Virus record (IMG/VR): IMGVR_UViG_3300015607_004160
Length of the DNA stretch: 64,000 nt
Reading direction: 5' to 3' (one strand)
Source: a virus
Taxonomy: Duplodnaviria > Caudoviricetes
Shown here: in pieces, positions 4,308 to 57,918 of the stretch
How positions within the stretch are numbered: position 1 is the stretch's first letter
Layout of the letters: each line of letters starts with the position of its first letter
Position numbers and translations under genes: made by a program
The notes under the pieces: model-generated
What the model was told of the DNA's origin: nothing
Database searches by the model: none
The model's input: the letters and a program-made list of their open reading frames with translations, nothing else

Positions 4308-4808
4308 ATGGGACACAGAATTAAAAAATTTAACGAATTAACAAATGAGCTTCAAAAAACTATTAAAGAAGCCAAAGATAAATTGTTAAATGCTATTCTA
4401 ACTGATACAGAAATATCTAAAGTAGAAAAACTTTGTTTAATAAGTGAAAATGATCTATTTAAAACAAATAGTTGGATATGTGACCCATTTCATGATGAAT
4501 ATTTTAAAGAATATGAAAGTCAATTAGCTAAAAAGGGGGTAACAAATCCATGTATTGATAGTTGGGTGCATAATAGAGATCCCTTTTCCAACAATGGAAC
4601 CGTGCTATTCAGGTTTCTGCGACATGAAACTGTTAATTTAGCGGAAATACTTGAGTACATGGATGAAGATGATAATGATGAGTTAATTACCATTTACACG
4701 AATAGAAGAACAAGTGATACACTTAAAATATCAAAATATGAATTTGTAGATACTATCTATGATTGGTGTATAAAAAATAAGTGTATCGCATTTGAAATAG
4801 ATTGGTAA
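4308..4808 (+). CDS. Hypothetical protein with N-terminal RIKKFNE tag
   Basis: 166-aa ORF starting MGHRIKKFNE. Confidence 0.75.
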   Translation: MGHRIKKFNELTNELQKTIKEAKDKLLNAILTDTEISKVEKLCLISENDLFKTNSWICDPFHDEYFKEYESQLAKKGVTNPCIDSWVHNRDPFSNNGTVLFRFLRHETVNLAEILEYMDEDDNDELITIYTNRRTSDTLKISKYEFVDTIYDWCIKNKCIAFEIDW

Positions 4809-4868
4809 ATAAAATAAATCGCAACTTTTAATACCATTCTTTATATAATTAAAAATAATTGTATTATA

Positions 4869-5825
4869 GTGCGGATTAAAAAGTTCAATGAATCATACAA
4901 TAAAGATATTTCATATTACTTATCAAAATTTACAGAAGTACATGGTGATAAATATGACTATCCTGATGTAGAAAAATTTTTTAAAAATAGTCAGTCTAAA
5001 ATTAATATACATTGTAAAAAATGTGGTAATATATTTAATCAGTCTATATCACATCATATATGGTCTAAATCTGGATGTAGAAATTGCTATGGAAATGCTC
5101 CTAATACAATTGATAAAATACTAAATAGGTCAGAAAAAATACACGGAGTTGGTCGATATTCATATCCAAATATTACCAATGAAAAAATTTCAGCATTTAG
5201 TAAAATTACAATATTGTGTAATAACTGTGGTAATTTATTTAAACAATCCGTTGCTGCTCATCTAAATAAAAAAAATGGGTGTAATAGATGTGTTAAAAGT
5301 AAAGTAGAAAATCTAATAGAAAACTACCTAATATCAAATAACATTGAATATGTTTCACAACATACATTTGATGGATGTGTATATAAGAGAAACTTATATT
5401 TTGACTTCTTCATTCCTAAATATAATTTATGTATAGAGTATGATGGTGAACAACATTTCAAATCAAGAAGAGACAGAGGTAGTCATAGTTTAGAACTACA
5501 AAGTATTAAAGATAATATTAAGAATCAATTTTGTCTTAAAAATTCCATAAATTTAGAAAGAATTATATATACAGACAACCTTTCAAAAAAACTTAAGGAA
5601 ATTTTAAATAAATATGGGTGTAAAGAAATTAAAAGTCTAAATGATGTTTCTATTTTATTTAATAAAAAGGCATCAAAATTTTGTTCCAAGTGTAAAAAAG
5701 AAAAAATTCTAGATGACTTTAACAAATCATCTAGAATGATAGATGGGTATAAATCATATTGTAGAGAATGCTCATCTGAAATGGGCAAAAAATACTATGA
5801 TACAAAAAATAAAAATAAAAAATGA
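4869..5825 (+). CDS. Putative homing endonuclease (CxxC repeats plus PD-(D/E)xK/DUF559-like domain)
   Basis: Two HGxxYxY..CxxC..H..GCxxC repeats; FDFFIP..LCIEYDGEQH..D.IKNQFC nuclease motif; C-terminal CxxC..CxxC; GTG start. Confidence 0.75.
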   Translation: MRIKKFNESYNKDISYYLSKFTEVHGDKYDYPDVEKFFKNSQSKINIHCKKCGNIFNQSISHHIWSKSGCRNCYGNAPNTIDKILNRSEKIHGVGRYSYPNITNEKISAFSKITILCNNCGNLFKQSVAAHLNKKNGCNRCVKSKVENLIENYLISNNIEYVSQHTFDGCVYKRNLYFDFFIPKYNLCIEYDGEQHFKSRRDRGSHSLELQSIKDNIKNQFCLKNSINLERIIYTDNLSKKLKEILNKYGCKEIKSLNDVSILFNKKASKFCSKCKKEKILDDFNKSSRMIDGYKSYCRECSSEMGKKYYDTKNKNKK

Positions 5826-6640
5826 TTAGCTACATTGGTGGAAAAAGCAGAATAGCTCCACAATTAATAATACCAAATATACCTAGTGATATTGAAATAT
5901 ATGTTGAACCATTTTCGGGTATGTTTTGGACCTTTTTTAAAATGGATTTGTCCAAATTTAATAAGGTAAAGACGATAGTTTATAATGATTTTAACCCATT
6001 GAATGTAAATTTATTCAACTGTGTTAGAAATTATGATAAATTTCATAGTATACTCAAAGATTATAATTCTCAAGATAGAGAATTATTTAATATTTCACAA
6101 AAAGAGATATTTGATAAAGATATAATTTTGAATATGAATACCCCAGATTATCATATAGCATCAAAATATGCATTGGTGTTGTCTCAAGTTTTCTCTGGGA
6201 CAAATCCTGAGAAAGGTAAATTTATTGACCTAAAAGGTAAATATAAATCCAAATTCGACTCATTTAAAAACAAATTAACAAATCCAAAATGGCAGGCCTA
6301 TTTCGATAAAATAACTGTTGTTGAAAATATGGATTTTGAAGATGTTATTAAGAAATATGATTCAAAGAAATCTTATTTTTATTGTGATCCTCCTTACTAT
6401 AATACTGAAAATTACTACGCTAACCATGATTTTGGATTAGAAACTCATGAAAGATTAGCAAATTGTCTTACATCTATGAAAGGTAAATTTTCATTAAGTT
6501 ATTATGACTTTCCACAACTATCTGAATGGTTTCCAAAGGATGAATATACTTGGAAAGAAAGAGAGTTCGCTAAAGCAGCAATGGCTAAAGCTGGAAAAGC
6601 ACAAACTAAAGCAGTAGAGCTTCTTATAATGAACTATTAA
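5822..6640 (+). CDS. Dam-like (D12 class) DNA N6-adenine methyltransferase
   Basis: YIGGKSR, YVEPFSG, VYNDFN, YCDPPY, ELLIMNY. Confidence 0.9.
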   Translation: MISYIGGKSRIAPQLIIPNIPSDIEIYVEPFSGMFWTFFKMDLSKFNKVKTIVYNDFNPLNVNLFNCVRNYDKFHSILKDYNSQDRELFNISQKEIFDKDIILNMNTPDYHIASKYALVLSQVFSGTNPEKGKFIDLKGKYKSKFDSFKNKLTNPKWQAYFDKITVVENMDFEDVIKKYDSKKSYFYCDPPYYNTENYYANHDFGLETHERLANCLTSMKGKFSLSYYDFPQLSEWFPKDEYTWKEREFAKAAMAKAGKAQTKAVELLIMNY

Positions 6641-6641
6641 A

Positions 6642-6869
6642 ATGATACACTGTCATATTTGTTATACTGAAAATGTTGATCCAGAATGGGTTTGTGATAG
6701 ATGTGAACAACATTATTGTGAGGATTGTTCTTATACATTTAGTCTTCATTATCAACATCAGGGAAACAGGTGTTATCAATGTGCTGATCAAAGTAGAAGA
6801 GAAAAATTACCAAATATAGATATATTAAGGGATAGGAAAATAAAAATATGGGCAAACCTTTTTTTATAA
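6642..6869 (+). CDS. Small Cys-rich zinc-finger protein with RDxKI tag
   Basis: Four CxxC pairs; C-terminal LRDRKIKIW. Confidence 0.7.
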   Translation: MIHCHICYTENVDPEWVCDRCEQHYCEDCSYTFSLHYQHQGNRCYQCADQSRREKLPNIDILRDRKIKIWANLFL

Positions 6870-6884
6870 AAATTTTCAAAATCT

Positions 6885-8674: not shown

Positions 8675-9226
8675 TTATTTTTTAGTTGATTTAGTTGCTC
8701 TTTTCTTTGTTACTCCTCCGGCCTTTCTTTCTACTCCGACTCCTTTTGCTGCTGGTTTTTTAGCAGTTTTTCTTGCAACACTAGCCGCTTTCCTAGCCTC
8801 GACCTTGGCTGCACTAGACGCATTTACAGCCTTTTTAGTTTCTGCTTTTTTATTTATATCCTTTTCATTCTTCTTATATTCTTCTTGTTGATATTCTTCT
8901 TTTAGCTTTTTAGCCTGTTCTTCAGATAGCCCAATATACCAATATGGGATTGATTTATCCCACTTAGCAACTTTAACACTAATTGATTTTAAATCAACAT
9001 TTTTATCATTTTGTATATCAGTAAAGGCTTGACTAACAATTAAACTTGTATATTTAGATAAATAGTTTTTCATACCTGCAAGTGAGTATATTCCTCTTTC
9101 ATTTGCAATGCCTTTCATCTCAACATTCGGTCTTTTCTTGAACATCTCAAGTAATTCGTCTACAACCTCTTTTTTATTTGTTCTAGCCTCGTTTAATAAA
9201 AAATCGGAGAATTTTTGAACTTCCAT
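8675..9226 (-). CDS. Hypothetical protein with N-terminal tag and K/A-rich basic tail
   Basis: MEVQKFSDFLLNEA; C-terminal histone-like KKAV..ARKTAKKPAAK; late motif at 9247-9255. Confidence 0.75.
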   Translation of the reverse strand: MEVQKFSDFLLNEARTNKKEVVDELLEMFKKRPNVEMKGIANERGIYSLAGMKNYLSKYTSLIVSQAFTDIQNDKNVDLKSISVKVAKWDKSIPYWYIGLSEEQAKKLKEEYQQEEYKKNEKDINKKAETKKAVNASSAAKVEARKAASVARKTAKKPAAKGVGVERKAGGVTKKRATKSTKK

Positions 9227-14420: not shown

Positions 14421-14780
14421 TTAAATTGAAACCATAATTTTAGGTGTTGTATGATAACATCCGTCAGTTATCTGTATTTTAAGGTCATGTTCCCTACAAT
14501 AAGCATTGCATAATTCATAATCCTCATTTTCATCCAAACTAGAGAAGAATCTATTACCATCATTATCATAATAAACCTCAAAATCTTGATTATAATAGTG
14601 ATTAACGTATTTAATGATATAATCAGCAGCCATCATATCACTATTAAAGCAATGTACTAAGTTATATACATCATCTATAAAGTCACTATTTCTTACTATA
14701 ACACAATATATTGTAGGATCATTATCCCACTTTTTAATCATTTCTTCAGATGAAGATTCATTAAATCTCTTTATCTTCAT
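14421..14780 (-). CDS. Hypothetical protein with N-terminal KIKRFNES tag
   Basis: Start reassigned to MKIKRFNES. Confidence 0.75.
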   Translation of the reverse strand: MKIKRFNESSSEEMIKKWDNDPTIYCVIVRNSDFIDDVYNLVHCFNSDMMAADYIIKYVNHYYNQDFEVYYDNDGNRFFSSLDENEDYELCNAYCREHDLKIQITDGCYHTTPKIMVSI

Positions 14781-16158
14781 CGGTAGTAGGTATGTTTTTT
14801 TCAGACACTCTAAAATTAAAGTCATCTGCTAGTTCAAATTTATACTTAGCTGATAATTTAGAGCTTATATCACCACCACTAAATCTAACTATAATATTAA
14901 AATTAATAAGTGGTTTGTCATCCATTTCTAAATTTACTTTAATAGTAAAATCATTATTTTCTTCTTCTTCATCAACTAACATCTTAACATGATAATCAAA
15001 ACTAACTTTTAAATCATCATATACCTGTCTAAAAAAGTCTCTTGATGGTATTTGATTAAATACATTTCCATTATTTCCCAAGTAATATGTCATTCTTTCA
15101 GAACATCCTAGTTTTTCAACTAATGTTTTGACTAATTTCATTTTAACATTACCATCAGCTAATTTGAAACCATTATCTAGCTTTTTAATGTCATCTAAGT
15201 TGTTTTTAGTTATTGATTCAGTTAATAGATGCTCCAGTATCTTAGAATTTAATATAAATACTTTTGTTTCCATCCATTCATTATAAACTCTTTCAACATC
15301 CATGAAGCAATTATCACGATTTTTCCAAATTTCACTCATTAAATCATGAAAATTAAGAATGTTTTTGTTAAACTCTTTGATAAATTCACCCAAGTGTTTA
15401 AACCTAGGATCTCTGTGTTTTATTTCAAAATATCTGAACCAATCTAAGGAATCTATTCTATCCTCGTCTATAAATTTTTCAATATGGATTTGAATATTCT
15501 TATTTGCATTGTCATATATAGTTCTAACCCATTGTTGAACTAACTTATTCCATTTCTGAATATACTCTGGTCCATATAACTTATCTATTTCATTTCCAAT
15601 TAAATCATCTGCAAATGTATTAAAGCTTGCAGTTTTATTCACAGTAATATTCTTATTTAAATAAAATGAATATTGTCTACCATCAGTTAGTTCTAAAACA
15701 ATATCTTCAGTATGGTCCTGATCTTTATTTGGACCTATCCAATATACTGCAACTACCATATCCTCGGTCACTTTACCATCTGGTAAAAGTTTATCTATAA
15801 TGTTTCTTGCTAGTATTCTAGCATTAACCAATTTATTCCAATCTTCTTCAATATTAAAACTAACCTCATCAAAAAATCCATTTAGTTTAGAAATTTCATT
15901 ATCAACTACACATTTATTATCAACAAATTGACCTAGATGTAATCTATTTTTAGCCAAAACCATATTTTTCAAATCTGTTAGAAAAACTCTTGAACTCTCA
16001 CTGTATCTAGCTTTTAATCCTTTATCTAATATACCATCTAGAAAAGAATTATTTATCAACAGCATACTTACACAAATTTCATGTATTATATTTGTTGGCT
16101 TATAGTAGCTCTTTTCAACTGATTCCAATAATAAAAAATCTAAATATTTCTTAATCAT
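14761..16158 (-). CDS. Hypothetical protein with N-terminal tag
   Basis: 465-aa ORF starting MIKKYLDFLLLES. Confidence 0.8.
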   Translation of the reverse strand: MIKKYLDFLLLESVEKSYYKPTNIIHEICVSMLLINNSFLDGILDKGLKARYSESSRVFLTDLKNMVLAKNRLHLGQFVDNKCVVDNEISKLNGFFDEVSFNIEEDWNKLVNARILARNIIDKLLPDGKVTEDMVVAVYWIGPNKDQDHTEDIVLELTDGRQYSFYLNKNITVNKTASFNTFADDLIGNEIDKLYGPEYIQKWNKLVQQWVRTIYDNANKNIQIHIEKFIDEDRIDSLDWFRYFEIKHRDPRFKHLGEFIKEFNKNILNFHDLMSEIWKNRDNCFMDVERVYNEWMETKVFILNSKILEHLLTESITKNNLDDIKKLDNGFKLADGNVKMKLVKTLVEKLGCSERMTYYLGNNGNVFNQIPSRDFFRQVYDDLKVSFDYHVKMLVDEEEENNDFTIKVNLEMDDKPLINFNIIVRFSGGDISSKLSAKYKFELADDFNFRVSEKNIPTTDEDKEI

Positions 16159-17911: not shown

Positions 17912-18142
17912 ATGAGTAAAATAAATAAATACGAAGATTTTAAAAATGTTAATGAATCCATGACTAATGATTCAGTACAAGATCTAATACAAAAAGCCAA
18001 AAGAATGGTTTCTAAAGATCAAATCCAAAAATTCATTCAGGATAATCAATCAGAGGTTGAAAGAGTTAAAGATTTATTAACAGATGAAAATGGTGGTATA
18101 GATTATAATAAGGTCTCTAAGTTTATTCAAAAAAATATCTAA
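17912..18142 (+). CDS. Small protein with N-terminal tag
   Basis: MSKINKYEDFKNVNES; AAATATATA upstream. Confidence 0.7.
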   Translation: MSKINKYEDFKNVNESMTNDSVQDLIQKAKRMVSKDQIQKFIQDNQSEVERVKDLLTDENGGIDYNKVSKFIQKNI

Positions 18143-18954: not shown

Positions 18955-19344
18955 TTATACCTCTTCTAAACATTGAATCAATCCTTCAAAAGTATCACAT
19001 TTATAAAATCTATAGGATAATTGGTCATATACATAATACCATTCATCATCAATTTTTCTAACTGCAAATTGAGAATTCATCATTAATGAAGAAACCAGTC
19101 CATTGCAATTTTTATTACAATAACGAATCCATTTGTCGATTTCTATCATATGGTTGCCCCTTAGTCCTTGTCCAAATAGACTTTTTAATTTTTCTATTTC
19201 CATTTTTGTGAATCCGTCCAGCTTTTTGGGGCCGTTCCAATCTGTACCTGATACTATATTATCATCTCCAGCAAACTTCTCCCATTCCTCAACTTCTATT
19301 TCATGGTATAGTTTATTAAAACTTTCAAATAATTTAATTTTCAT
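18955..19344 (-). CDS. Hypothetical protein with N-terminal tag
   Basis: MKIKLFESF; C-terminal DDEWYYV..YKCDTFEGL. Confidence 0.75.
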   Translation of the reverse strand: MKIKLFESFNKLYHEIEVEEWEKFAGDDNIVSGTDWNGPKKLDGFTKMEIEKLKSLFGQGLRGNHMIEIDKWIRYCNKNCNGLVSSLMMNSQFAVRKIDDEWYYVYDQLSYRFYKCDTFEGLIQCLEEV

Positions 19345-19906
19345 CTCTCTTCCCTAAATATTTAAATAGTATATATTGAAGCTCCGGAGTATTTTCTTCC
19401 CATACTCGAATAGGATCCTCCATCAACTTATCATTCCATATTTCAACTTGACCAATTCTGTCAAGATTTCTTATTATTGAAACGTCTTCTGGTATATCAA
19501 CAGCCTTTTCAGCTTTTTGATATCTATCATATATATCCATTCCTGATAACATGCTCTTAAAGGCAGCCGTTTTATCCATTGATATTGCAATGGGGTGTTT
19601 GATCCATTTTATATTTTTATATAAGAATTTTTGATTTTTTGAATAAAAAAATCTATCAACTAATAGTATTCTATGATAATAGAAATCAAAATCATATTTA
19701 CTTATTACAATAACATCATTAAATCTATTATTTGTTTTAAGATAAATATCTATTTTATCTGCTAAACCAGGTGTAATATCATATTCTATATATAAGAAAA
19801 ATTCACCACTATCTTTTTTTGATAAATATTTTTCATCAACTTCAGATAGTAAGTAATCTAAGTATTCCTCAGCATTAAATGATTCATTAAACCTTCTTAC
19901 CCTCAT
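19334..19906 (-). CDS. Hypothetical protein with N-terminal tag
   Basis: MRVRRFNESF. Confidence 0.75.
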   Translation of the reverse strand: MRVRRFNESFNAEEYLDYLLSEVDEKYLSKKDSGEFFLYIEYDITPGLADKIDIYLKTNNRFNDVIVISKYDFDFYYHRILLVDRFFYSKNQKFLYKNIKWIKHPIAISMDKTAAFKSMLSGMDIYDRYQKAEKAVDIPEDVSIIRNLDRIGQVEIWNDKLMEDPIRVWEENTPELQYILFKYLGKRDEN

Positions 19907-19907: not shown

Positions 19908-20603
19908 TTAATATTCTAATTTTAAAGTTTTCCCTTCATGAATTATCTCAACACCACTAAAAACACTTCTCTCATACTTATCATCATCATTCCTCTTTCT
20001 ATGTTTTAAGTTCTTAATATCTTTATATAATTGACTATCATTAGTAATTGTATCTTTAAGATACAAATATATTGTTTCTTTTCTACCATAATATCCTGAT
20101 GATCCATGCACATGATTAAAACTTGAATATTCCACATTATATTTATCTTTTAATACTGTTTTTATTATATTAGGATCTATACTTACACTACCATGATTTG
20201 ATGTAAGTGCATCTAATAATGAAAAGTTATTATCAATAAAAAAAACCTTTATATGAATTTCATTATCCCATATCTGAATTCCCCATTTATATCCAAGGTG
20301 ATCGATTCTTTTAAGCGGGGTTTTTAGTCTATTTAAAATATCCTTTTGTTCATCATATCCCTTAACTAAATTTTCAAAATCTGCAAATCCATTTGCATTT
20401 TGCACACACTCATCTTTATAAATAGTTATTCTAATATATTTCTGATCGCTGCTTAGATTACCGACCGTGCGGATTTCACAAGTAGGGTATTCTTCTCCAT
20501 CCTCAAGTTTTTGCCTTTCGTCTAGGAATTCTGTAAATATATCCTCAATCTCTTCAAACTGTTCAGTCGAATCAGACTCAAATATTTTTTTTAAATATTT
20601 CAT
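19908..20603 (-). CDS. Hypothetical protein with N-terminal tag
   Basis: MKYLKKIFES..EIEDIFTEFLD. Confidence 0.75.
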   Translation of the reverse strand: MKYLKKIFESDSTEQFEEIEDIFTEFLDERQKLEDGEEYPTCEIRTVGNLSSDQKYIRITIYKDECVQNANGFADFENLVKGYDEQKDILNRLKTPLKRIDHLGYKWGIQIWDNEIHIKVFFIDNNFSLLDALTSNHGSVSIDPNIIKTVLKDKYNVEYSSFNHVHGSSGYYGRKETIYLYLKDTITNDSQLYKDIKNLKHRKRNDDDKYERSVFSGVEIIHEGKTLKLEY

Positions 20604-23390: not shown

Positions 23391-23694
23391 CTTTCCTTAA
23401 CATTGCTTTAAAGATAGTACTCATTCGTTTGCTCTCTATTGGATCGCACTGTAAAAATATCCTATGTGAGTAATCGCCTTCTTTTTGTTTTTCAAAACAC
23501 AAATCATATATTGGTATGCATTTATCAGAAAGAGGTTGTTTGGTTCTAGTGCAGTCCGAGTTAAGGAAATATCTTTCTATTTCAATAGAAAAGCCAGCAT
23601 CTATCATCTCTAGTGCAATATCGCTGATATCCTCATCAGAAATAGGATGGTATGAACTATAATCAGCTGATTCATTAAATCTTTTAATACGCAT
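23380..23694 (-). CDS. Hypothetical protein with N-terminal tag
   Basis: MRIKRFNES..DISDIALEMIDAGF. Confidence 0.7.
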   Translation of the reverse strand: MRIKRFNESADYSSYHPISDEDISDIALEMIDAGFSIEIERYFLNSDCTRTKQPLSDKCIPIYDLCFEKQKEGDYSHRIFLQCDPIESKRMSTIFKAMLRKVSS

Positions 23695-37996: not shown

Positions 37997-38011
37997 ATAC
38001 TATATATTAAT

Positions 38012-40236: not shown

Positions 40237-40242
40237 TGACTT

Positions 40243-41037
40243 TTGAAAATACATTTTAAAATAAACTATTATCCACCATTTGAATATAAAACCTCAATGG
40301 TGGATTTTATTTTAGAAAAACTTAATACATACAACGCTGACCCAGGATTTAAATTCGATCCTGTAAGACATCTATACACATACAACGGTGATAAATTCAT
40401 TTCAGTAACACAATTCATTTCTTTATTTCACCAAGATTTTGATGATGATTATTGGTCAAAGTATAAGTCTGAAGAAACTGGCAAGTCACAGGAAGAAATA
40501 TTAGCAGAGTGGAAGATTTTAAATGATAGAGCCAATGTTATTGGATCATCTACACACAATTGGATAGAAAATTACTTCAATAAAGTCTATCAAGAGATTC
40601 CAACAGATATAGATATAGTAGATAGAATAAACAAATTCAATGTTGCTTATGTTAAATATTTATATAAGTTAACCCCAATAAAATTTGAACAACGGATTTT
40701 CTCTAAAAAATGGAAAATAGCCGGAATGATTGATTCCTTATTTCTGTATAAAGATAAGGTTATAATGATAGATTGGAAAACCAATAAACTATTTACAGAT
40801 GATGATCACTACAAAGGTAAATTTGAAAAGTTACTACCACCATTTGATAATTATTGGAAAAATCATTATAATGAATATTCTATTCAAGTTTCATTATATA
40901 GATTGATACTTAGAGAAATTGGCATTGATGTGAAAGCTTGTTATTTACTACATATTGGTCCCGATGGTGAGGCAAAGATGCATACAGCTAGAGACTTCAC
41001 ATCAATATTAGAAACACATTTAAATAGTTTAGTTTAA
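40243..41037 (+). CDS. PD-(D/E)xK exonuclease (RecB/Cas4-like)
   Basis: SVTQ, GSSTHNWIE, IAGMIDSL, IDWKT, YSIQVSLY; start uncertain. Confidence 0.8.
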   Translation: MKIHFKINYYPPFEYKTSMVDFILEKLNTYNADPGFKFDPVRHLYTYNGDKFISVTQFISLFHQDFDDDYWSKYKSEETGKSQEEILAEWKILNDRANVIGSSTHNWIENYFNKVYQEIPTDIDIVDRINKFNVAYVKYLYKLTPIKFEQRIFSKKWKIAGMIDSLFLYKDKVIMIDWKTNKLFTDDDHYKGKFEKLLPPFDNYWKNHYNEYSIQVSLYRLILREIGIDVKACYLLHIGPDGEAKMHTARDFTSILETHLNSLV

Positions 41038-41558
41038 CGAGAAGTCGTTGTTGTAGTTGTAGTTGTACTAGTTGTGGTTGTTGTAGTTGTAGGGGCATAG
41101 TTTAACAAAAATCCAATTGATGATTGATATTTACTTAATAACGATGCAGTTGGACTTCCAGAAAATGTACTACCAGTTGCGCTAAAAGCTCTCAATTCTA
41201 AAACATTATTATTCGTTTCAGTTTCTATTATTCTGCCTATGTTATATCCATATCGGTAAACATATTGTCCCATTTGAATCACATTTACAGAATCACAAAA
41301 CTTCTTTAAGTCTTCCTGAAATTTTGAATTAGTTTGAAATCTAATCTGATCAAATGTTTTCTTTTTAACATAATCAACATTTGATATATCAATAGTATCA
41401 ATTGAATATTTTCTTAATAATGTATCTTGAAATGTAGAATATAGTCCATCTTTAAAAAGTTCATCAACATACTGATAGTATTCAATTCTACCGAGCTCTC
41501 CTTTTTTAGCAATGGCGTCTATCTTAGAATAGATTTTATTGACTTTTTTAATATTCAT
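41034..41558 (-). CDS. Hypothetical protein with C-terminal poly-Thr tract
   Basis: Start MNIKK; ends PTTTTTTTSTTTTTTTSR. Confidence 0.7.
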   Translation of the reverse strand: MNIKKVNKIYSKIDAIAKKGELGRIEYYQYVDELFKDGLYSTFQDTLLRKYSIDTIDISNVDYVKKKTFDQIRFQTNSKFQEDLKKFCDSVNVIQMGQYVYRYGYNIGRIIETETNNNVLELRAFSATGSTFSGSPTASLLSKYQSSIGFLLNYAPTTTTTTTSTTTTTTTTSR

Positions 41559-41562
41559 CTTA

Positions 41563-42642
41563 TTACTGATTTTGTTCTGGTGTTGGTGTCTTCTCACCCT
41601 CTGGTCTAATTAATGCATCAACTTCAGCTATCTTATCTCTTTGGGCAGTTTGTAAAAAGTCTGTATAATTTTTAACTGCTTTTAGTTTATCCTTATCATT
41701 TTTGATGTTCTTTAAATTATTTGTGATTTCTTCAGCAGTTTTATCCTGCTCTTGTGGAGCAGCACCCAAAATATCTTCATATTTTTTCTTAAAGTTAGTA
41801 CCGTCTTCTGCTTTAAATCCAACATTACCTTGATCATCAAGTGTGTCAATTACTTTAGTTCCGACTCTATCTTTTTGTTCTTCGGGTTTCTTGTTTTCAT
41901 CAAATCCATCCATTTTATACATTACCTTTACCTTCTTATCAAAGAATTCTTTTAATTTTTCATAATTCATTGTAGCAACTTGACCACCTCCTTTTTTAAT
42001 TGCTTCATCATATATTTTCTTCATTTCTTCCTCAGTTAATTCCTTATCTAACTGCATTGACATGTCTTTTTGAAAACTATCAAAGAATTTAAAAGATGTA
42101 TCCTGAGCCACTTTTAATTGTTGTGCATCAGCTTTTCCTTTAACCGCATTATTAATGGCTTCTGTATATTTAGTAGATCCGAATTTATAATTTGGATCTG
42201 ATAATAATCCATAAATTCCTTTCCATCCAGCTTCTTTATTACCAATTAAGATAGATTTGGCAACTGCTGCTGCGGCAGATGATTTTCCCTTATCACCTAT
42301 TGCCGAACCAAAATCTTTTCCTATACCTTCTGCCAATTGAGTTAAACTACTCTTAAATTGTTCCATTATACCGATAACATCTGAAACATTTGTAATATTT
42401 TTATCACGAAGTCCCTTCTGAGCAGAATCAATCGCTTGATTTAAATTACTCATTACAATTCCCTTAATAGAATTTGGATCGTCTTCTTTAAAAGATTTTT
42501 TGATATCATCTACCAAATCCTTAAATGGTGCAGAAAAAGTTTGAAAAAGCTTTCCTAAAGCTCCCTTTACTAACTTTCCAATAAATTCCTCATTTATCAT
42601 TTCATGATTTTTATGAGATTCATATGTTTTGATATATTTCAT
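41563..42642 (-). CDS. Hypothetical (probable virion) protein with N-terminal tag
   Basis: MKYIKTYESHKNHEMINEEF; late motif at 42659-42667. Confidence 0.8.
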   Translation of the reverse strand: MKYIKTYESHKNHEMINEEFIGKLVKGALGKLFQTFSAPFKDLVDDIKKSFKEDDPNSIKGIVMSNLNQAIDSAQKGLRDKNITNVSDVIGIMEQFKSSLTQLAEGIGKDFGSAIGDKGKSSAAAAVAKSILIGNKEAGWKGIYGLLSDPNYKFGSTKYTEAINNAVKGKADAQQLKVAQDTSFKFFDSFQKDMSMQLDKELTEEEMKKIYDEAIKKGGGQVATMNYEKLKEFFDKKVKVMYKMDGFDENKKPEEQKDRVGTKVIDTLDDQGNVGFKAEDGTNFKKKYEDILGAAPQEQDKTAEEITNNLKNIKNDKDKLKAVKNYTDFLQTAQRDKIAEVDALIRPEGEKTPTPEQNQ

Positions 42643-43636: not shown

Positions 43637-44374
43637 TTATATTTTTTTCATCTTTCTATATATTAATGTATTTGATAAAATTGGTTTATCTTCATTATCC
43701 TCCCATTTAGCAGATATAACTAATTCACCCCCTATCAAACTGACGCTAAAATACTTATTTTTTCCTATGCGAAATGTTGCATATGTATCTTCTATTTTTA
43801 TTGGTTCGACTTCTATCTCGTCATCTCCATCAAAATTTTTCATTGATTTCACAAAATCAAATCTCTCATTACCTTTATAATATTCTTTTTTTAAGAGTTT
43901 TAAAAATGGATCATGAATCTTTAAAACCTCATTTTTTCTAACACCAAATACATCCTTCCATTTGAATCCCAATGTTATATGTAAGTCCATTTCTGGAAGA
44001 CCAAATATCTTTCTTAGCTCCTGCAAATCATCAGACTTAACTACGACAAAATATGTCCTATTTTCATTTCTTTCAGCTGTTCCAACCCCCATTAAATTAA
44101 TTTCAAATTCAGTATCAAAGTATTTTTCTAATGAATTAATAAATTTATCAAATCCAACTTCTTTTGATATTTTGTTATATTCCATAACATTGATGACAGT
44201 TATATGATGCTTACCATGGTCCCTATTAGACTGATTGGTTATATAGGTATCATAATCATCTTCTAATATTTCTTCTAATTGAGATAGGTAAGGTGTTACT
44301 ATATCAGTATAGATATTAACTCCTATATAATTATTACCGACTATATCTTTTAAATATTCTAATCTTACTTTCAT
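43637..44374 (-). CDS. 2H phosphoesterase
   Basis: Two H-x-T motifs, HHITVI and LHITLG, about 80 aa apart. Confidence 0.8.
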   Translation of the reverse strand: MKVRLEYLKDIVGNNYIGVNIYTDIVTPYLSQLEEILEDDYDTYITNQSNRDHGKHHITVINVMEYNKISKEVGFDKFINSLEKYFDTEFEINLMGVGTAERNENRTYFVVVKSDDLQELRKIFGLPEMDLHITLGFKWKDVFGVRKNEVLKIHDPFLKLLKKEYYKGNERFDFVKSMKNFDGDDEIEVEPIKIEDTYATFRIGKNKYFSVSLIGGELVISAKWEDNEDKPILSNTLIYRKMKKI

Positions 44375-44817
44375 TTTCCTTTAAATTTTAATTTACCGAC
44401 TACTAAGGCAGGAGTAGTATACAATAATTTTTTTAATTTACCTATATATCTTTTATCAGATATTAATATTTCAAAATCTAGAGATTCACTATCTTTTGAT
44501 AGACCAATATAAGCGGATTCGAATCCATAGTCTTTACCCATACCCTCTATTTCAGCTATTGCGTATTTGCTAATATCAACGGTTTTAAATTTTCGTTTTG
44601 AGTCTGATCTAAAACTATCTAATACATAGTCAACTGCTGCTAATATACTATTAAATTTTTCTTCCTTTCCATTATAATTTCCAACTACAGATACCTTAGT
44701 TATCTTTCTTCGTATATCTCCTATAAAATTGGTTAATCTGTGATCAGCTAAATCCTTTGTTAAGGCCGACGCAACTTTACTAGCACTAAATAACTCATTG
44801 AACTTTTTAATTTTCAT
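44371..44817 (-). CDS. Hypothetical protein with N-terminal tag
   Basis: MKIKKFNELF. Confidence 0.75.
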   Translation of the reverse strand: MKIKKFNELFSASKVASALTKDLADHRLTNFIGDIRRKITKVSVVGNYNGKEEKFNSILAAVDYVLDSFRSDSKRKFKTVDISKYAIAEIEGMGKDYGFESAYIGLSKDSESLDFEILISDKRYIGKLKKLLYTTPALVVGKLKFKGK

Positions 44818-44833: not shown

Positions 44834-46843
44834 TTAAAATCCATTATTTTTTAACCAAACGATAAAATCATGAGCATATAAATGTTTTTTACCTTCATAT
44901 TTGCTATCGGTTCCTTTTATTCCATATAAACCATACCCTGGATCAGAAAGTTTCATTTTTTTATGTTCTTCTATTACTCTTTCCTTTAATGACCTATCCC
45001 TAGTATTATTAGCTGAAATTATATTAAAATTTCTTTCATCAATATTAAAATCACATACTTTAGTCCATGTTTTTGTTAGAACCGACATTTGTTTATTTAA
45101 ACTATAAAAGTCTTTTCCACTTGTATTATTTGGGTGTTTTCTACCAAGAGGTTCCGGCTTTTGAGTACATATAATATAATCTTTAGTTTCCATAACTATC
45201 GCCCTTGACCCAACTTGAAATCCTAGACTTTCTAAGTATTCATCATTTAATTGTTTATCTTCTTCATAGTTATACTTATCATTGACCATCATTCTAATAT
45301 TTAACACCTTGTCTGAATATTCTAATTTACCATTATCACAATAGACTGTAATAGTTTTTATTTCTTTTATTCCTTTTAACCTGTTCATAACTTGTTGAAT
45401 ATCAGAATAGAAACTAGCAGATTTTAAAAACTCAATGTGATTCGAATACCCAACTGGTAATCCATATCCTTTAAGTGACATGGTAAAGTAGTAGTTGTTA
45501 TCAGCATAATCGTTAGTTTTGGTATCATTTAGATATAAATTGTAAGTTCCCTGAGCAAATTCACTACGAGGAGGTGCTTTACTCAAACTATCAGTTACAT
45601 ATAAAAAAGCATCTTCAATTTCGGATAATAAGGCATATTTATCTATTTCCTTTGGTATATCATATTCACCAACTCCATATTTATTCAGGAATTTTTTTGC
45701 AAATTCTACATTTCCTTCTCTTTCCTTCTCTTCCTCTTCATGTTCCATAATATCTTTACATATTTCAATAGCTCCATCTATATAAGATTGGTCAAATTTA
45801 GTTATACCAAGCCTTGTTCTTTTTTCATCACTTAACATAGCATATATGTTTGATGAAGAAGATATTGGGTAATAAGCATGATATGGTTCTTTGTATTCTT
45901 CTGGTTGTTTACCAGTTCTCTCTGCATATAGATTTTTAATTATTTGATCAATATCTATATCTAAATCATCATCATCTTCCACATCGTCAGATATCAAATT
46001 TTGGTCTTTTATTTTACCCAAAAACATACTTTTCCATTTTTCTTTTTCAGCTTTTTCTTTGTCCTCTCTTTCCTTTTTAAGCTTAGAAATATGTTGATTT
46101 GCCGCATCAATAGTCATGGCAACTTGGGGTATATTTAATATTCTATTTACAACCTCTTGTATTTGTGGGGCAAATTTTGCATTTTGCCAATCTCCATATC
46201 CTGCCAGGTCTTGGTCTGCACCACCTGCTTCTTCTATGATAAATCCATCTTTATTCCATCCATACCCTGTTCCTATAGTACATAATAGGTTATCTGATAT
46301 GGATCTTCTATTAGAATAAAGAGATTTATATTTATAATTAGGATCTAGTTTAATTTCAACCCAATCTTCAAGTGTTTTGTTAATCTTTAACATCTTCTTT
46401 TCTAGTTCACTCAGTGGTTTGCCATTTTTAATTAAATTAAAAAATGTTTTACTGTCTTTAACATTATCTCTACCATTGGTAACATGCATCGCCCACGCAT
46501 CATAGATTAGATTTTCTATTTCATTGTTTTGGGGATTACACATTTCAATTTTATATTTAGGATTATCTTCACAATCCCAATAACCGGTTTCCTCACCATC
46601 TTCATCTGTAGTTGTAGCTCCATCTCTAAGAATGCCATCACCTCCCCAACAAACTCTACCATCATACCATAAGGTATTATACATATATCCTAGCTTGGCT
46701 AATTGTGGTAAATTCTCTGATTGAGTTAGGTACTCTTGATTTTCCCTAATACAAATAAGTATAGGATCAATTACATTTTCCTCAAATTTGAAATGTTTGT
46801 CATTGACGAAACTTTCATATGTTTTAACTATTTTCTTTGCCAT
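44834..46843 (-). CDS. Large hypothetical protein with N-terminal tag
   Basis: Start reassigned to MAKKIVKTYESF; C-terminal half paralogous to 46845..47663. Confidence 0.8.
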   Translation of the reverse strand: MAKKIVKTYESFVNDKHFKFEENVIDPILICIRENQEYLTQSENLPQLAKLGYMYNTLWYDGRVCWGGDGILRDGATTTDEDGEETGYWDCEDNPKYKIEMCNPQNNEIENLIYDAWAMHVTNGRDNVKDSKTFFNLIKNGKPLSELEKKMLKINKTLEDWVEIKLDPNYKYKSLYSNRRSISDNLLCTIGTGYGWNKDGFIIEEAGGADQDLAGYGDWQNAKFAPQIQEVVNRILNIPQVAMTIDAANQHISKLKKEREDKEKAEKEKWKSMFLGKIKDQNLISDDVEDDDDLDIDIDQIIKNLYAERTGKQPEEYKEPYHAYYPISSSSNIYAMLSDEKRTRLGITKFDQSYIDGAIEICKDIMEHEEEEKEREGNVEFAKKFLNKYGVGEYDIPKEIDKYALLSEIEDAFLYVTDSLSKAPPRSEFAQGTYNLYLNDTKTNDYADNNYYFTMSLKGYGLPVGYSNHIEFLKSASFYSDIQQVMNRLKGIKEIKTITVYCDNGKLEYSDKVLNIRMMVNDKYNYEEDKQLNDEYLESLGFQVGSRAIVMETKDYIICTQKPEPLGRKHPNNTSGKDFYSLNKQMSVLTKTWTKVCDFNIDERNFNIISANNTRDRSLKERVIEEHKKMKLSDPGYGLYGIKGTDSKYEGKKHLYAHDFIVWLKNNGF

Positions 46844-46844
46844 T

Positions 46845-47663
46845 TTATAACCCATTATTTTTTAGCCATAATAAAAAATCTGTTGCATAAAGGTCTTTAG
46901 TACCTTCTTTTTTACTTTTGTTTATACCATATGTCCCATAAGACTTATCTGATAATTTCATTTTTTTGTGTTCTTGAAAAATTTGGTGAATAAAATTTTC
47001 CAATTTTTTATCTGAAATCTTATATTCATTTTCATTATACAATAAATTAAATCCCCTCTCGTCTATTGTAAGATCAAATAATTTATTCCATTTTTTATCA
47101 CATATTTCAAGTGATTTCACTTGAGGTTCTATATTATTTACTACATAAATATTATATGAATTTAATTTCATACCGATAAATGTATCTGATATTTCAAATC
47201 CTTTTTTTGATAATTCATTTTCCCTTTTTAACCTTTTACTATACCCATGATTATCATTGACTATCATCTTTATTTCTATATTTGCATCTAAATCATCTAA
47301 ATCAACTTCCTCACTTTCAGGTATATTTGAATAATAGAAAAAAACAAACTTTAGATCCTTTATTAATCGAAGTCGATGTAATACATTTTTAATATCGTTA
47401 TAAAATGCAGCCCCACTAAGTGATTCAATATCATTTGAAAATCCAAAAGGCAATTTATCAATATCACCTAATTTTAGATAAAAGTAATAATTATTATCAT
47501 CATATGCCTCATTTATATATAATGTATATTCCCCAGCTTTCATTTCTGAGGTATAGAAAGATTTAGTTCTCTTAAAAGAATCGGTTAAATAGAGAAAACA
47601 ATCTTCTATTTCACTCAACAACTTATATTTAAATAAATCTCTAACTTTTTTAATTTTAGCCAT
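46845..47663 (-). CDS. Hypothetical protein, paralog of the C-terminal half of 44834..46843
   Basis: Shared KY.LLSEIED.FLY.TDS, DNNYYF, IDER.FN, HKKMKLSD, WLKNNG blocks. Confidence 0.8.
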   Translation of the reverse strand: MAKIKKVRDLFKYKLLSEIEDCFLYLTDSFKRTKSFYTSEMKAGEYTLYINEAYDDNNYYFYLKLGDIDKLPFGFSNDIESLSGAAFYNDIKNVLHRLRLIKDLKFVFFYYSNIPESEEVDLDDLDANIEIKMIVNDNHGYSKRLKRENELSKKGFEISDTFIGMKLNSYNIYVVNNIEPQVKSLEICDKKWNKLFDLTIDERGFNLLYNENEYKISDKKLENFIHQIFQEHKKMKLSDKSYGTYGINKSKKEGTKDLYATDFLLWLKNNGL

Positions 47664-47683: not shown

Positions 47684-48871
47684 TTATAACATTCGTTTAA
47701 ATTTTTCTATTTCTAATCTTTTAATTTCTGCACCTAGCTGGGCGCCTTGAAATCCCTTATCCATTAACTTTTTTGAATCAACAGATGGTTTATATTTTAA
47801 AAATGCCATATGAATCTTATCTGATATGTTATTAACTTTATACCAGTCTAGTATCACATCATCAGAAACCCTAGCGATTTGTTTTTTCTTGTAAAGGTCA
47901 ATTACATTATTAATATCTAAATTAATTAGGGATATCAAGAATACAATTTTTCTTGCCATATCTACTTCAATCTTAAATTTTTGAACAAGTTTATTTAACA
48001 ATTTATCTGGGTTGTTATTAATTAGTATATTAGATAAATAAACTTCTAAAAATTTAGAGTCTTTAATATCTTCATTGATATTAACTCCTGGTAAAATTTG
48101 AGGCCACATATTATATTCATTTAATAGTGTTAAATAAATAGAAAAATTTTTACATTGGGCAAACGATTTTTTAACTTCATCCCATATTCTTTCTGCTGAT
48201 ACATCTTCTTTTGGACCAACACCTATTAGTCTATTATCTGATTTTATAGCATCTGAAGTCTGTTTGTCAATTTTTCCATTTGATCTGGCAGTAAATCTAA
48301 AAATACGGCAAATTCTTAATCTATCTTCCTTGAATCTCTCAATGGGATTTCCAACTGCTTTAATAACATTATTTTTTATATCATTAACACCACCAACAAT
48401 ATCTACAATTTCCTTTTTTTCTATATTATAAAATAAAGCATTAATAGTAAGATCCCTTCTCATACAATCGTCCTCTATCGTTATATGATTACCCATTTCG
48501 ACCTTTTGATCATTCCCTTTTGTATCCCTACCCATAGATATATCCTTTCTATAAGATGCAATTTCATAGCCATTTGGCTCATCTTTTGTATAGACTCTTA
48601 TCACACCAAAATTTTTACCTTGCTCATCAGATACATTAAATTCGTTTAATATTTTTTTGGACTCACTCGGCAATGCGTTTGTAACTAAATCATAATCCTT
48701 TGGTGTTTTACCTTGTAGAAAATCCCTGACAGCCCCACCTACAACAAATATATTTTTTCCATTTTTTATATACTGATTTGAGATATTAATTATATCATAT
48801 GGTAAGGGCATTTCTATTTTAATAGAATTATTTTCTAGTAAAAAATCTTTATAATTTTTAATTTTTTTCAT
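47684..48871 (-). CDS. cca: tRNA nucleotidyltransferase (class II, CCA-adding) with N-terminal tag
   Basis: VGGAVRD..KDYDL, RRDLTINA, RFKEDRLRICR..RF, VSAERIWDE; no HD domain. Confidence 0.9.
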   Translation of the reverse strand: MKKIKNYKDFLLENNSIKIEMPLPYDIINISNQYIKNGKNIFVVGGAVRDFLQGKTPKDYDLVTNALPSESKKILNEFNVSDEQGKNFGVIRVYTKDEPNGYEIASYRKDISMGRDTKGNDQKVEMGNHITIEDDCMRRDLTINALFYNIEKKEIVDIVGGVNDIKNNVIKAVGNPIERFKEDRLRICRIFRFTARSNGKIDKQTSDAIKSDNRLIGVGPKEDVSAERIWDEVKKSFAQCKNFSIYLTLLNEYNMWPQILPGVNINEDIKDSKFLEVYLSNILINNNPDKLLNKLVQKFKIEVDMARKIVFLISLINLDINNVIDLYKKKQIARVSDDVILDWYKVNNISDKIHMAFLKYKPSVDSKKLMDKGFQGAQLGAEIKRLEIEKFKRML

Positions 48872-49724: not shown

Positions 49725-49818
49725 AAACTATATATTAAATTTCATTACCGGAAAAGTCGAATAGTTCTAAATGGATCTTTTATTTAAAATATACGTAAAA
49801 ATTTAATATATATATTAA

Positions 49819-50277
49819 ATGGATAATTCTGAAATAATAGTTAGGAAATTTGAGAGCTTCAATGATAATACTTGGGAAGAGGATTTACTTTCACTATATG
49901 ATATTTTTTGTGAATTAGAAGATACTAAAATATGTCGGATTGATTACCAAGGGGGGTATAGAACATCCAGTGGAAGTAATAGTTATACTTGCTTTTTAAA
50001 AAATGAGAAAATAGAAGGCGACAAAGATCATATTAATTATATGATCAGAGTCAATTCTAAATCCTTATTAAGAGTTAGTTTACTCGAAATAGAATATAAA
50101 GGAGGATATTCACCATTTAGCCAAACAAATGCTCCTTCTTTTTATGCGGAAGATGCAGATATATTTCTTCAAATAATGAGATATGTGGATGCTGCTAAAA
50201 AAAGAATGCCTAAGTACAATCTTGGAATAACATTGGATGAAAATGTAGTTTACCTTGACTTTTTGGAAAACAGATAA
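49819..50277 (+). CDS. Hypothetical protein with N-terminal tag
   Basis: VRKFESF..LYDIFCELED; late motif at 49804-49812. Confidence 0.75.
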   Translation: MDNSEIIVRKFESFNDNTWEEDLLSLYDIFCELEDTKICRIDYQGGYRTSSGSNSYTCFLKNEKIEGDKDHINYMIRVNSKSLLRVSLLEIEYKGGYSPFSQTNAPSFYAEDADIFLQIMRYVDAAKKRMPKYNLGITLDENVVYLDFLENR

Positions 50278-50290
50278 TAATATATAGAAT

Positions 50291-56456: not shown

Positions 56457-56577
56457 AATTTTGTTTTTGTGTTTTTAGACACAATAATCCTGAGGCCCAA
56501 CCTTTCGGTTATAGTGTTACAGTAAATTTTTTGAAAATAGGATTCCGAGCCAATCATCGGGGATTTTGATGATTGGA

Positions 56578-56613
56578 TTATACAACAGCGCGTATTCTTC
56601 GATTCGTTTTCAT
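56578..56613 (-). promoter_or_regulatory. Putative leader peptide MKTNRRIRAVV* in the structured fusA leader
   Basis: 11-codon uORF whose stop abuts a 9-bp hairpin (CCAATCATC/GATGATTGG, 56550-56576). Confidence 0.55.
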
Positions 56614-56685
56614 TTTTAAAGAGAAAGTGGTCATTTTTAACCACTTTTATAATATGTATATATTAAATTATTTTTCCTAAGTTTA

Positions 56686-56716
56686 CAAAGATACGAATAT
56701 TTTTGAAAATAACAAA
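56686..56716 (-). promoter_or_regulatory. Bacteroidota-type early promoter for fusA
   Basis: TTTG-N19-TATCTTTG; a late motif also lies at 56657-56665. Confidence 0.75.
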
Positions 56717-56887
56717 TTATTTTTTGACTATTTGTTCAACACCATCAAGGGTATTCTAAAATATCAAATCCTTTATCACCATTACTTAATTTACATGTAA
56801 ATACTATAAACCAATTAATATCAGATCATTTTGACTATGACTGTCATCATAGTCAAGATATTCTTGCGCGAAATTTTTTTAAATATT

Positions 56888-57460
56888 TCATAGTGATTTT
56901 ATAGATTGATTTAGCACTTCAATTGGACTTAACTCTGCATTCACTTCACAAAGCTTTCCACTTCTTTCATAAAAATCAACTAGTGGTTTGGTTTGTTCTT
57001 CAAATTCTTTAAATCTCCTTTCTATTACCTCATCACTCATATCATCTTTTCTATTTTCCTTCTCAGCTCTTTTTTTTATTCTTTCTTTAGCTGTCTTTTC
57101 CGATAGCTTAAGATATATAACAGATTTTAAATCAATATTGATTTCCTCTAATAGTGACTCTAACTGATGTGCTTGATTTATAGTTCTTGGAAAACCATCT
57201 AAGATAATATTCTTACTTGAATCCTTTTTTATTTCATCTTTAAGTAGTCTAAAAATAATGTTATCTGGAACAAGTGTTCCCTGTGCCCTATAGACACTTT
57301 TTAATTCTGGATCATTTGAATTTCTAATTAAATCACCAGTGGATATATGAACAAAGTTATCTATTGGAATTAATGCTTTAGCAAGTGTTCCTTTACCCGA
57401 CCCAGGAGACCCAACTAATGAAACACAATATTTTTTGAAAAATGGTTTAATATATTTCAT
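56888..57460 (-). CDS. adk: Adenylate kinase (short-LID type)
   Basis: GSPGSGKGT, HISTGDLIR, GTLVPD, LDGFPRT..QA, RKDD. Confidence 0.93.
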   Translation of the reverse strand: MKYIKPFFKKYCVSLVGSPGSGKGTLAKALIPIDNFVHISTGDLIRNSNDPELKSVYRAQGTLVPDNIIFRLLKDEIKKDSSKNIILDGFPRTINQAHQLESLLEEINIDLKSVIYLKLSEKTAKERIKKRAEKENRKDDMSDEVIERRFKEFEEQTKPLVDFYERSGKLCEVNAELSPIEVLNQSIKSL

Positions 57461-57918
57461 ATATTTAAGTTTCGACTAATTTTAATAAAATTAACTGATT
57501 CCGAATAATATCCGTTTGACTCACCCAACCATCTTAAAGTAACATATCCTTTAATTGTAGCCAAATTATAAAATGTCCATGTGTATGAGTCATTGCCATA
57601 CCCCACATTATCTGGCTCATCACCTACATCCTCAGAAGACTTAAGTATTGGATTACCAATTAAATCTTCTAGATCTCCTACAATATCATATAATCGAACA
57701 TACTCACAACAGTCTTGATCGTGATACATACAATAATTATTACCACTTTCACAATAAAATGCAATTTCTGTACTATTCCTATTTATTACAATGTCAAAAA
57801 TCGTTTCACCAATTAAAGATGATACCTCACATCTTCCTAATTTTCTATAAACTAGTGAATGTTGGTGCCCAATAAATTCGTCATTAGATTTTGATTCGTA
57901 ATATTTTATATATTTCAC
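57457..57918 (-). CDS. Phage protein with HDQDCCE motif and N-terminal tag
   Basis: MKYIKYYES; HDQDCCE.V, TWTFY..T.KG.V..RW.GESNGYYSE, a common phage family. Confidence 0.75.
   Translation of the reverse strand: MKYIKYYESKSNDEFIGHQHSLVYRKLGRCEVSSLIGETIFDIVINRNSTEIAFYCESGNNYCMYHDQDCCEYVRLYDIVGDLEDLIGNPILKSSEDVGDEPDNVGYGNDSYTWTFYNLATIKGYVTLRWLGESNGYYSESVNFIKISRNLNI

Follow-up and report, generated by a model that had tools for sequence, protein, structure and literature searches.

A Short N-Terminal Tag Resembling the T4 Capsid-Targeting Sequence on About Twenty Late-Type Proteins of an Uncultivated Huge Phage

Introduction

In phage T4, a capsid-targeting sequence (CTS) of 10–19 residues stands at the N-terminus of the internal proteins IPI, IPII, and IPIII and of Alt, which are otherwise unrelated, fast-evolving late proteins (PMC9026906, PMC5694885, PMC3012670). 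Cleavage by the gp21 prohead protease takes the peptide off (Mullaney and Black 1996; reviewed in PMC9026906, PMC5694885, and PMC3012670), and amber-suppressor work on IPIII assigned targeting to residues 4 and 7 and processing to residues 8 and 10 (PMC9026906). Here, we describe a short tag at the N-termini of about twenty proteins encoded in a stretch of 64,000 nucleotides (nt) of the virus record IMGVR_UViG_3300015607_004160 (IMG/VR; Caudoviricetes), the whole of which is hereafter called the window. Like the T4 CTS, the tag is borne by unrelated, fast-evolving proteins of late-type genes, and its predicted cut site has the form hydrophobic-x-Glu.

Proteins are also loaded into the heads of other large phages. 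The phiKZ-like giant phages (SPN3US and 201phi2-1) contain many head-internal or ejected proteins, including enzymes, which are processed after Glu by a gp21-related protease cutting at A/S/G-x-E. Their propeptides, which are thought to target the prohead, are mostly 80–130 residues long and have no common short consensus; cleavage is known for about 8 proteins, and the head contains about 50 in total (PMC5694885, PMC7411985). In phage P1, accessory anti-defence proteins are placed in the myovirus head for co-injection, and DarB, Ulx, and others need DarA/Hdf for incorporation, a hierarchical route through partner proteins that uses no common short N-terminal tag (PMC9024508, PMC12810830). In the phage considered here, both processing and head loading are predicted from the genes. 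Among published systems, the T4 CTS and the phiKZ-like phages with their long propeptides (PMC5694885, PMC7411985) come nearest; the phage literature searched gave no account of a CTS expanded in this way in huge phages.

The window (G+C content, 27–33%; 90 genes called) comes from an uncultivated phage of about 640 kb that belongs to a clade of huge phages of the LR756502 type (460–735 kb). Its 572-amino-acid (aa) baseplate-wedge protein (24525–26243) shares 66% and 62% identity with those of the uncultured phages LR756502 (642 kb) and LR745206 (635 kb), 39–41% with those of LR756504 and LR756501/3 (636–735 kb), and 23–29% with those of LR756500 and cultivated Bacteroidota jumbo phages such as Tenacibaculum PTm1/pT24 and Flavobacterium MaF61. 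We take the LR accessions to be part of the huge-phage set of Al-Shayeb et al. 2020. The whole LR756502 genome (980 genes) served as a proxy for the phage of the window.

Results

The N-Terminal Tag

The tag is an N-terminal, modular, late-associated element that is under selection at the protein level. A preliminary description of this DNA had listed 22 N-termini with a shared motif. All 22 sequences proved to be as written on re-reading; 18 were clear tags, three were weaker (genes starting at 26243, 20603, and 22029; 3.8–5.3 bits in the tag profile), and one, that of the adenylate kinase starting at 57460, was doubtful. The adenylate kinase was dropped from the tagged set, because it lacks the Glu and its ADK domain begins at residue 15, leaving no space for a removable peptide.

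When the window N-termini were graded with the tag profile, 18 genes scored at least 8 bits versus 0.15 expected from shuffles, a comparison that is circular within the window, since the profile was trained on these tags. A two-part regular expression matched 25 of the 90 called genes; when residues 2–22 of each N-terminus were permuted, 200 trials averaged 3.7 matches and never gave more than 9. The first 14 residues were enriched over protein interiors 16-fold for FNE, 12-fold for [FYW][NE]?E[SF], and 18-fold for [KR][FYW].?E[SF]. The shuffles and the interior rarity ruled out the concern, voiced with the original list, that the motif might be no more frequent at N-termini than a K/F/E-rich composition would make it.

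The tag is 8–13 residues long and ends at residues 8–16 of the precursor, i.e., at the extreme N-terminus. A short form, the commonest in the window, consists of a basic lead, Phe or Tyr, an optional residue, and Glu-Ser (MKIKRFNES, MKIKLFES), and has one aromatic residue only. A long form consists of Tyr or Phe, two residues, Phe, Leu or Ile, one or two residues, and Glu (MKKIKNYKDFLLEN, MIKKYLDFLLLES). Because orthologues of the 465-aa protein (14761–16158) alternate between MIKKYLDFLLLES and MRYLRNYKLFKEA, the two forms were regarded as one element. In two genes (19334–19906 and 19908–20603), the short form is followed by a long-form motif. Glu occupies P1 in 21 of 22 tags and a hydrophobic residue occupies P3 in 18 of 22, P3 being Phe in the commonest form.

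An all-against-all BLASTP comparison with the first 16 residues removed found a single related pair, the C-terminal half of 44834–46855 and the untagged 46845–47663, and the carriers are therefore not a paralogue family. The C-terminal 260 residues of the former are 39% identical to the latter, an adjacent protein of 272 aa; the two genes are a local duplication with the tag on one copy alone. The LR756502 homologue of the protein encoded at 4869–5825 is tagless, its alignment beginning at its residue 6 and at residue 17 of the window protein, which indicates that the tag of this gene is a modular add-on. For the conserved residues (Glu, Ser, Phe, Tyr, Lys, and Arg), codon usage matched that of the bulk: the tag Ser was encoded by all six codons (TCN and AGY), Glu was GAA in 69% of cases versus 61% in bulk, and Arg was encoded by both AGR and CGN. 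Since the tag codons occur at bulk frequencies, selection acts on the peptide and not on the RNA.

Likeness to the T4 Capsid-Targeting Sequence

That the tag looks like the T4 CTS, as the preliminary description proposed, was borne out. A profile built from the window tags only, run on 282 T4 N-termini, ranked IPIII third, gp61.1 fourth, IPII sixth, and IPI eighth. The long form M-K-K-I-K-N-Y-K-D-F-L-L-E has the layout of M-K-T-Y-Q-E-F-I-A-E, including the four critical positions. As a side observation, T4 gp61.1 (NC_000866, 18966–19130), a hypothetical protein of 54 aa, begins with MKTFKEFIKED, a near-perfect CTS, and may, judged by this sequence, be an overlooked head-targeted peptide.

Position-wise conservation was examined in two sets of orthologues; orthologues of the tagged proteins are abundant in public metagenomes. 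In the CCA-adding enzyme (120 orthologues; 60–100% identity), Tyr7, Phe10, [ILV]11, and Glu13 were nearly fixed, with Tyr in 114 of 118 and Phe in 117 of 118 sequences. The column entropy was 0.24 for Tyr7, 0.07 for Phe10, and 0.49 for Glu13, and position 11 held I, L, or V only, while positions 8, 9, and 12 (1.8–2.7 bits) were among the most variable of the protein. In the exonuclease (118 orthologues), Tyr (97/112), Phe at +3 (102/118), and Ile or Leu at +4 were kept, Glu at +6 was present in 118 of 118, and the residues between them were variable. Since Tyr, Phe (+3), [ILV] (+4), and Glu (+6) are the residues conserved, the conserved positions are exactly the T4-critical positions 4, 7, 8, and 10.

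Replication in Relatives

The window-only profile was then applied to the 980 N-termini of LR756502, where 107 scored at least 6 bits (8 expected from shuffles) and 65 scored at least 8 bits (1.8 expected). At a cut-off of at least 5 bits, 37 matches were N-terminal and 4 internal. A cut-off of at least 4 bits drew in RecA-like and gp32-like proteins, by inspection chance matches off the N-terminus, and the cut-off was raised to at least 7 bits. Tagged proteins number about 100 in LR756502 (about 10% of genes), and entire arrays of neighbouring genes start with MKHLKxYNES or MKHLKTYKIFES. Orthologues in the window and LR756502 keep the tag pattern despite residue changes (MEVQKFSDFLLNEA versus MEVKRYNQFINEA); likewise, the LR756502 orthologue of 8675–9226 begins with MEVKRYNQFINE/A (slash, predicted cut), in which the pattern is retained with different residues. 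The LR756502 relative of 41563–42642 begins with MKHLRNFDKF. Almost no tags were found in the cultivated Tenacibaculum phage PTm1, in which only ORF-187 and ORF-188 begin with MKLFETINESF and MKELIKHIQESF. These two adjacent genes (39854–42505) lie downstream of structural genes and may encode the few CTS-type head proteins of PTm1.

Late-Type Promoters

The motif AATATATA was found 5' of 22 of the 90 window genes and 191 of the 980 LR756502 genes, 17-fold over background. Because it precedes the baseplate-wedge gene in the window and the portal, protease-scaffold, and capsid genes in LR756502, it was treated as the late class. Each gene was given the class of the closest same-strand motif 5' of it, a rough way of calling operons. 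On this basis, the window has 21 late and 0 early tagged genes versus 35 and 18 untagged ones (p = 0.0017), in agreement with the earlier remark that most tags sit in late-motif operons; in LR756502, the numbers were 101 and 11 versus 381 and 181 (p = 3e-7). Judged by promoter motif only, the tagged genes would be expressed late. A second motif class, GTATCTTTG, is a Bacteroidota-type TAnnTTTG −7 element and lies 5' of the genes at 1393, 38043, 38941, 54279 (−), 61632 (−), and 63978 (−), none of which is tagged; these genes are presumably early and transcribed by the polymerase of the host.

In many genes, with or without a tag, only 4–6 nt separate the end of the late-type motif (T)TAATATATA from the ATG. 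Among LR756502 genes with their own motif, this spacing was seen in 39 of 49 tagged genes (80%) and in 78 of 144 untagged genes. Should this motif act as a −10-like element, in the manner of T4 TATAAATA, many late mRNAs may have little or no leader. About half of the tagged LR756502 genes lie inside operons and have no motif of their own. The spacing does not explain the tag, because the 78 untagged genes share it and half of the tagged genes lack their own motif.

Head Module and Scaffold Repeats of the Relatives

In LR756502, a T4-type portal gene (Portal_T4, E = 1e-57) is followed by a gene for a 699-aa protein (225272–227371) and a gp23-type capsid protein gene (Gp23, E = 4e-28). At its N-terminus, the 699-aa protein has a domain that can be aligned with T4 gp21 over NRNxRxY, GExxHP, and VSSRxxG; a sequence search of the PDB with this protease domain gave no match. 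The rest of the protein is scaffold-like and contains 11 tandem 14-residue repeats, YSEY[IL]AExLDKxI, each with an [IL]-A-E site. A gp21-family protease with scaffold was found in the relatives LR756502, LR756501, LR756504, and LR756500, with 13 repeats in LR756501, 12 in LR756504, and a degenerate set in LR756500. The protease-scaffold fusion is also present in PTm1, with different repeats. Together with the conservation of the four T4-critical positions and the retrieval of the T4 internal proteins, the T4-type head module, the gp21 homologue, and the tag-like scaffold repeat of the relatives make the case for a CTS stronger than a mere likeness to the IPIII sequence would.

In LR756502, tagged N-termini account for about 22 matches to the pattern aromatic-x-polar-aromatic-[LIV]-x(1-2)-Glu, the scaffold for 11, and the other 190,000 residues for about 25. 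The same aromatic/[LIV]/Glu pattern is found in T4 in IPII, IPIII, gp61.1, and, as FGSFLTE, at residues 59–65 of gp23, which we take to be the gp23 maturation cleavage site. When the tag profile was run along whole LR756502 proteins, the scaffold repeats were not detected, because they have no basic lead; they were found only with the aromatic/Ile/Glu core pattern. This likeness in sequence pattern suggests a tag that mimics a scaffold repeat and shares its type of cleavage site.

Nature of the Tagged Proteins

The carriers, listed in Table 1, are mostly orphan proteins of 76–673 aa and make up about 20% of the genes in the window. No transmembrane-like segment was found in any of 20 carriers, which are accordingly soluble. 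They are acidic, with a median isoelectric point (pI) of 5.1 versus 6.5 in the window and of 5.1 versus 5.9 in LR756502 (p = 2e-5). An LR756502 homologue was found for 6 of 22 tagged versus 38 of 69 untagged window genes (p = 0.03). The carriers are fast-evolving, matching the internal-protein loci of T4. One of them, 21397–22029, has an LR756502 match at 62% identity. Another, 26243–26998, is flanked by the baseplate-wedge gene and the conserved gene that follows downstream, and since it is missing from the syntenic place in LR756502, it looks like a recent insertion.

Three enzymes had been put forward among the carriers in the preliminary description. The CCA-adding enzyme was confirmed by Pfam (E = 1e-31), the DEDD exonuclease was weak by Pfam but its orthologues have RNase_T, and the adenylate kinase was excluded for lack of the Glu. 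A PDB sequence search with the exonuclease gave no match. A Pfam scan of 61 strongly tagged LR756502 proteins returned 19 families, including CCA enzyme, lysozyme, NUDIX, SAM methyltransferase, 2H/Acb1-like phosphoesterase, HNH, GNAT, and PQ-loop families; no tail, terminase, or portal family was among them.

The mean column identity of the CCA enzyme was 69% over its whole length in the orthologue set. Its AlphaFold model had a mean predicted local distance difference test (pLDDT) score of 86.7, with residues 1–13 below 50; that of the 465-aa protein (14761–16158) had a score of 78.2, with residues 1–20 at about 50 and a confident body. In both models, the tag is a short low-confidence helix (pLDDT of about 50 or less) detached from the body, and such a peptide, conserved but unstructured as modelled, has the look of a linear targeting motif. 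The 465-aa protein had 1136 metagenome homologues, with 65–97% identity among the 120 matches listed. No Pfam domain was found in it, and a Foldseek search of the PDB with its model gave no match at E of 0.001 or lower. It thus counts among the conserved core proteins of the clade, without an assigned function.

Table 1. Tagged genes of the window and examples of short-spaced late motifs. The slash marks the predicted cut; (GTG), GTG start; score, tag-profile score in bits; late motif, distance 5' of the ATG.
Position (strand)	Length (aa)	N-terminus	Score	Remarks
4308–4808 (+)	166	MGHRIKKFNE/L	12.8	AATATATA 4 nt 5' of ATG; weak DUF7020 match
4869–5825 (+)	318	(GTG)RIKKFNE/S	17.1	Treble-clef zinc-finger protein
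8675–9226 (−)	183	MEVQKFSDFLLNE/A	20.2	Long T4-like form
14421–14780 (−)	119	MKIKRFNE/S	16.0	No Pfam family match; no LR756502 homologue
14761–16158 (−)	465	MIKKYLDFLLLE/S	21.4	
17912–18142 (+)	76	MSKINKYEDFKNVNE/S	19.1	Late motif, 5 nt
18955–19344 (−)	129	MKIKLFE/S	11.3	
19334–19906 (−)	190	MRVRRFNE/S	15.0	Second, long-form motif EYLDYLLSE
19908–20603 (−)	231	MKYLKKIFE/S	4.5	Weaker; second motif IFTEFLDE; I-F-E fits [LI]-x-E
21397–22029 (−)	210	MKYIKGYKKFSE/S	3.8	Weaker; late motif, 5 nt
23380–23694 (−)	104	MRIKRFNE/S	17.0	
26243–26998 (+)	251	MLNWSSFNE/S	5.3	Weaker; no basic lead
34796–35587 (+)	263	(GTG)IKIKYLEFLKE/H		DEDD-type exonuclease; Pfam DNA_pol_B_exo1 E = 4e-5, RNase_T E = 0.003
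35574–36434 (−)	286	MIKKYQSFFE/S	15.8	Late motif, 4 nt
37436–37996 (−)	186	MILKWSKFNE/S	12.3	Late motif, 4 nt
41563–42642 (−)	359	MKYIKTYE/S	10.5	Second candidate site MINE/E at residue 18
44371–44817 (−)	148	MKIKKFNE/L	15.3	Late motif, 5 nt
44834–46855 (−)	673	MAKKIVKTYE/S	9.5	669 aa if start is 46843
47684–48871 (−)	395	MKKIKNYKDFLLE/N		CCA-adding enzyme/poly(A) polymerase family; PF01743 from residue 41
49819–50277 (+)	152	MDNSEIIVRKFE/S	9.0	Tag offset 8 residues; late motif, 6 nt
56888–57460 (−)	190	MKYIKPFFKKY	4.1	Adenylate kinase, not counted as tagged; ADK E = 4e-37
57457–57918 (−)	153	(GTG)KYIKYYE/S	8.0	DUF7448
4293–4307				Late motif
36435–36449				Late motif
37997–38011				Late motif
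49725–49739				Late motif
50276–50290				Late motif

Discussion

We consider it probable, at roughly 65%, that the tag is an expanded homologue of the T4 CTS, that is, a capsid-targeting propeptide cut by a prohead protease. From homology and internal consistency, we infer docking, cleavage, retention in the head, and injection. In this mechanism, the tagged genes would be transcribed together with the head genes from AATATATA-type (late-type) promoters. The tag, with its basic lead, Tyr or Phe, often a second Phe three residues on, Ile or Leu, and Glu, would dock the protein onto the scaffolding core of the prohead, probably by mimicry of the 14-residue repeat of the scaffold (YSEY[IL]AE...). 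A gp21-type prohead protease would then cut after the Glu and free the mature protein inside the head, and the cargo would leave with the DNA at the next infection. The preliminary description had read the tag in much the same way; its T4 likeness, its late operons, and the presence of enzymes among the carriers stood, and the adenylate kinase as a carrier did not. That the carriers act before any phage transcription is speculation.

A more specific version, which we hold only tentatively, is that cargo is loaded by scaffold mimicry: the tag would be one copy of the repeat, the 11–13 repeats fused to the protease would form a multivalent docking and cleavage array, and the largest known phages would in this way pack 100 or more different proteins (10–25% of their genes). 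Most of this cargo would be fast-evolving orphans together with RNA-repair, nucleotide, and anti-defence enzymes, so that the virion would deliver a ready-made proteome with the DNA.

Compared with T4, the clade differs in several respects. T4 has 4–5 tagged proteins and this clade about 100 (about 20 in the window); the one-aromatic K-F-N-E-S form dominates here; and the scaffold is fused to the protease and carries 11–13 tag-like repeats, which T4 gp22 does not have. IPI–III are small, basic, DNA-associated proteins present in hundreds of copies, unlike the acidic carriers here (76–673 aa), some of which are enzymes. The carriers share the tag with the T4 internal proteins and not a protein family. 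The new observations are the retrieval of T4 internal proteins by a window-only profile, the position-wise conservation in two orthologue sets that matches the T4 mutational map, the likeness of tag and scaffold repeat in three relatives, the controls on codons and promoter spacing, and the tag as a free appendage in the models.

Several points weigh against a CTS. The carriers are acidic (median pI of 5.1), the T4 internal proteins basic, and the scale, about 20% of genes in the window and about 10% in LR756502, is without precedent. T4 gp21 prefers Leu or Ile at P3, whereas most window tags are of the one-aromatic short form with Phe, and three tags (TYE, TYE, and KFE) have no hydrophobic P3. 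The Pfam S77 score of the 699-aa protein is under the curated cut-off, and an alignment of the LR756502 capsid protein with T4 gp23 did not reliably place the maturation site. The clade has no cultivated member; the head module of the phage itself lies outside the window, and the T4-type head genes were checked in the relatives.

Some of these points would fit a tag that directs its carriers to some other late partner or place (another assembly, a chaperone, a protease adaptor, an intracellular compartment), its likeness to the T4 CTS being convergent. We regard this as unlikely. The carriers are indeed acidic enzymes and orphans rather than basic DNA-binding internal proteins, their number of about 100 per genome is far above any known head cargo, and most tags are short with one aromatic residue. 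Such an address leaves unexplained, however, why the four conserved positions are the functional ones of T4, why T4 internal proteins are retrieved by the window profile, why the scaffold repeat has the same pattern ending in [IL]-A-E, and why short and long forms interconvert within one orthologue family.

Slightly less probable again is that the tag does target the prohead core, but that the carriers are accessory scaffold or filler at assembly, later degraded or expelled, and not an active payload. The tag resembles a scaffold repeat, and maturation destroys the scaffold; in two carriers, a second site follows a few residues on; and an acidic charge is awkward beside packed DNA. On the other hand, some carriers are folded enzymes on which purifying selection acts from end to end, such as the CCA enzyme with its conserved columns and confident model, and filler would have no need of the NUDIX, 2H/Acb1-like, methyltransferase, HNH, GNAT, and lysozyme domains seen in LR756502.

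An explanation at the level of mRNA, in which the shared start is a translation feature of nearly leaderless late genes and not a protein signal, appears quite improbable and was rejected on the codon-usage and promoter-spacing controls. The A/U-rich tag codons and the short spacing of most tagged LR756502 genes with their own motif speak for it, but codon choice at the conserved residues equals bulk with all six Ser codons in use, many untagged genes have the same spacing, about half of the tagged genes sit in operons without their own motif, and conservation tracks amino-acid positions and not bases. Chance from a K/F/N/E-rich composition, to which the low genome G+C content (27%) and the Lys-rich N-termini might point, can be given practically no weight, as it was tested and rejected on the shuffles (3.7 versus 25 observed in the window; 1.8 versus 65 at 8 bits or more in LR756502) and on the 12- to 18-fold rarity of the motif inside proteins.

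If the tag acts like its T4 counterpart, the injected proteome of a huge phage would be readable from its genome, as about 100 proteins, most of them without an assigned function. The tagged proteins would then be prime candidates for factors of first-minute takeover and anti-defence, and their number would help to account for the coding capacity of the largest phage genomes. The tag, at 8–13 residues, could serve to load proteins into capsids, and the array of tag-like scaffold repeats hints at how a CTS is recognised.

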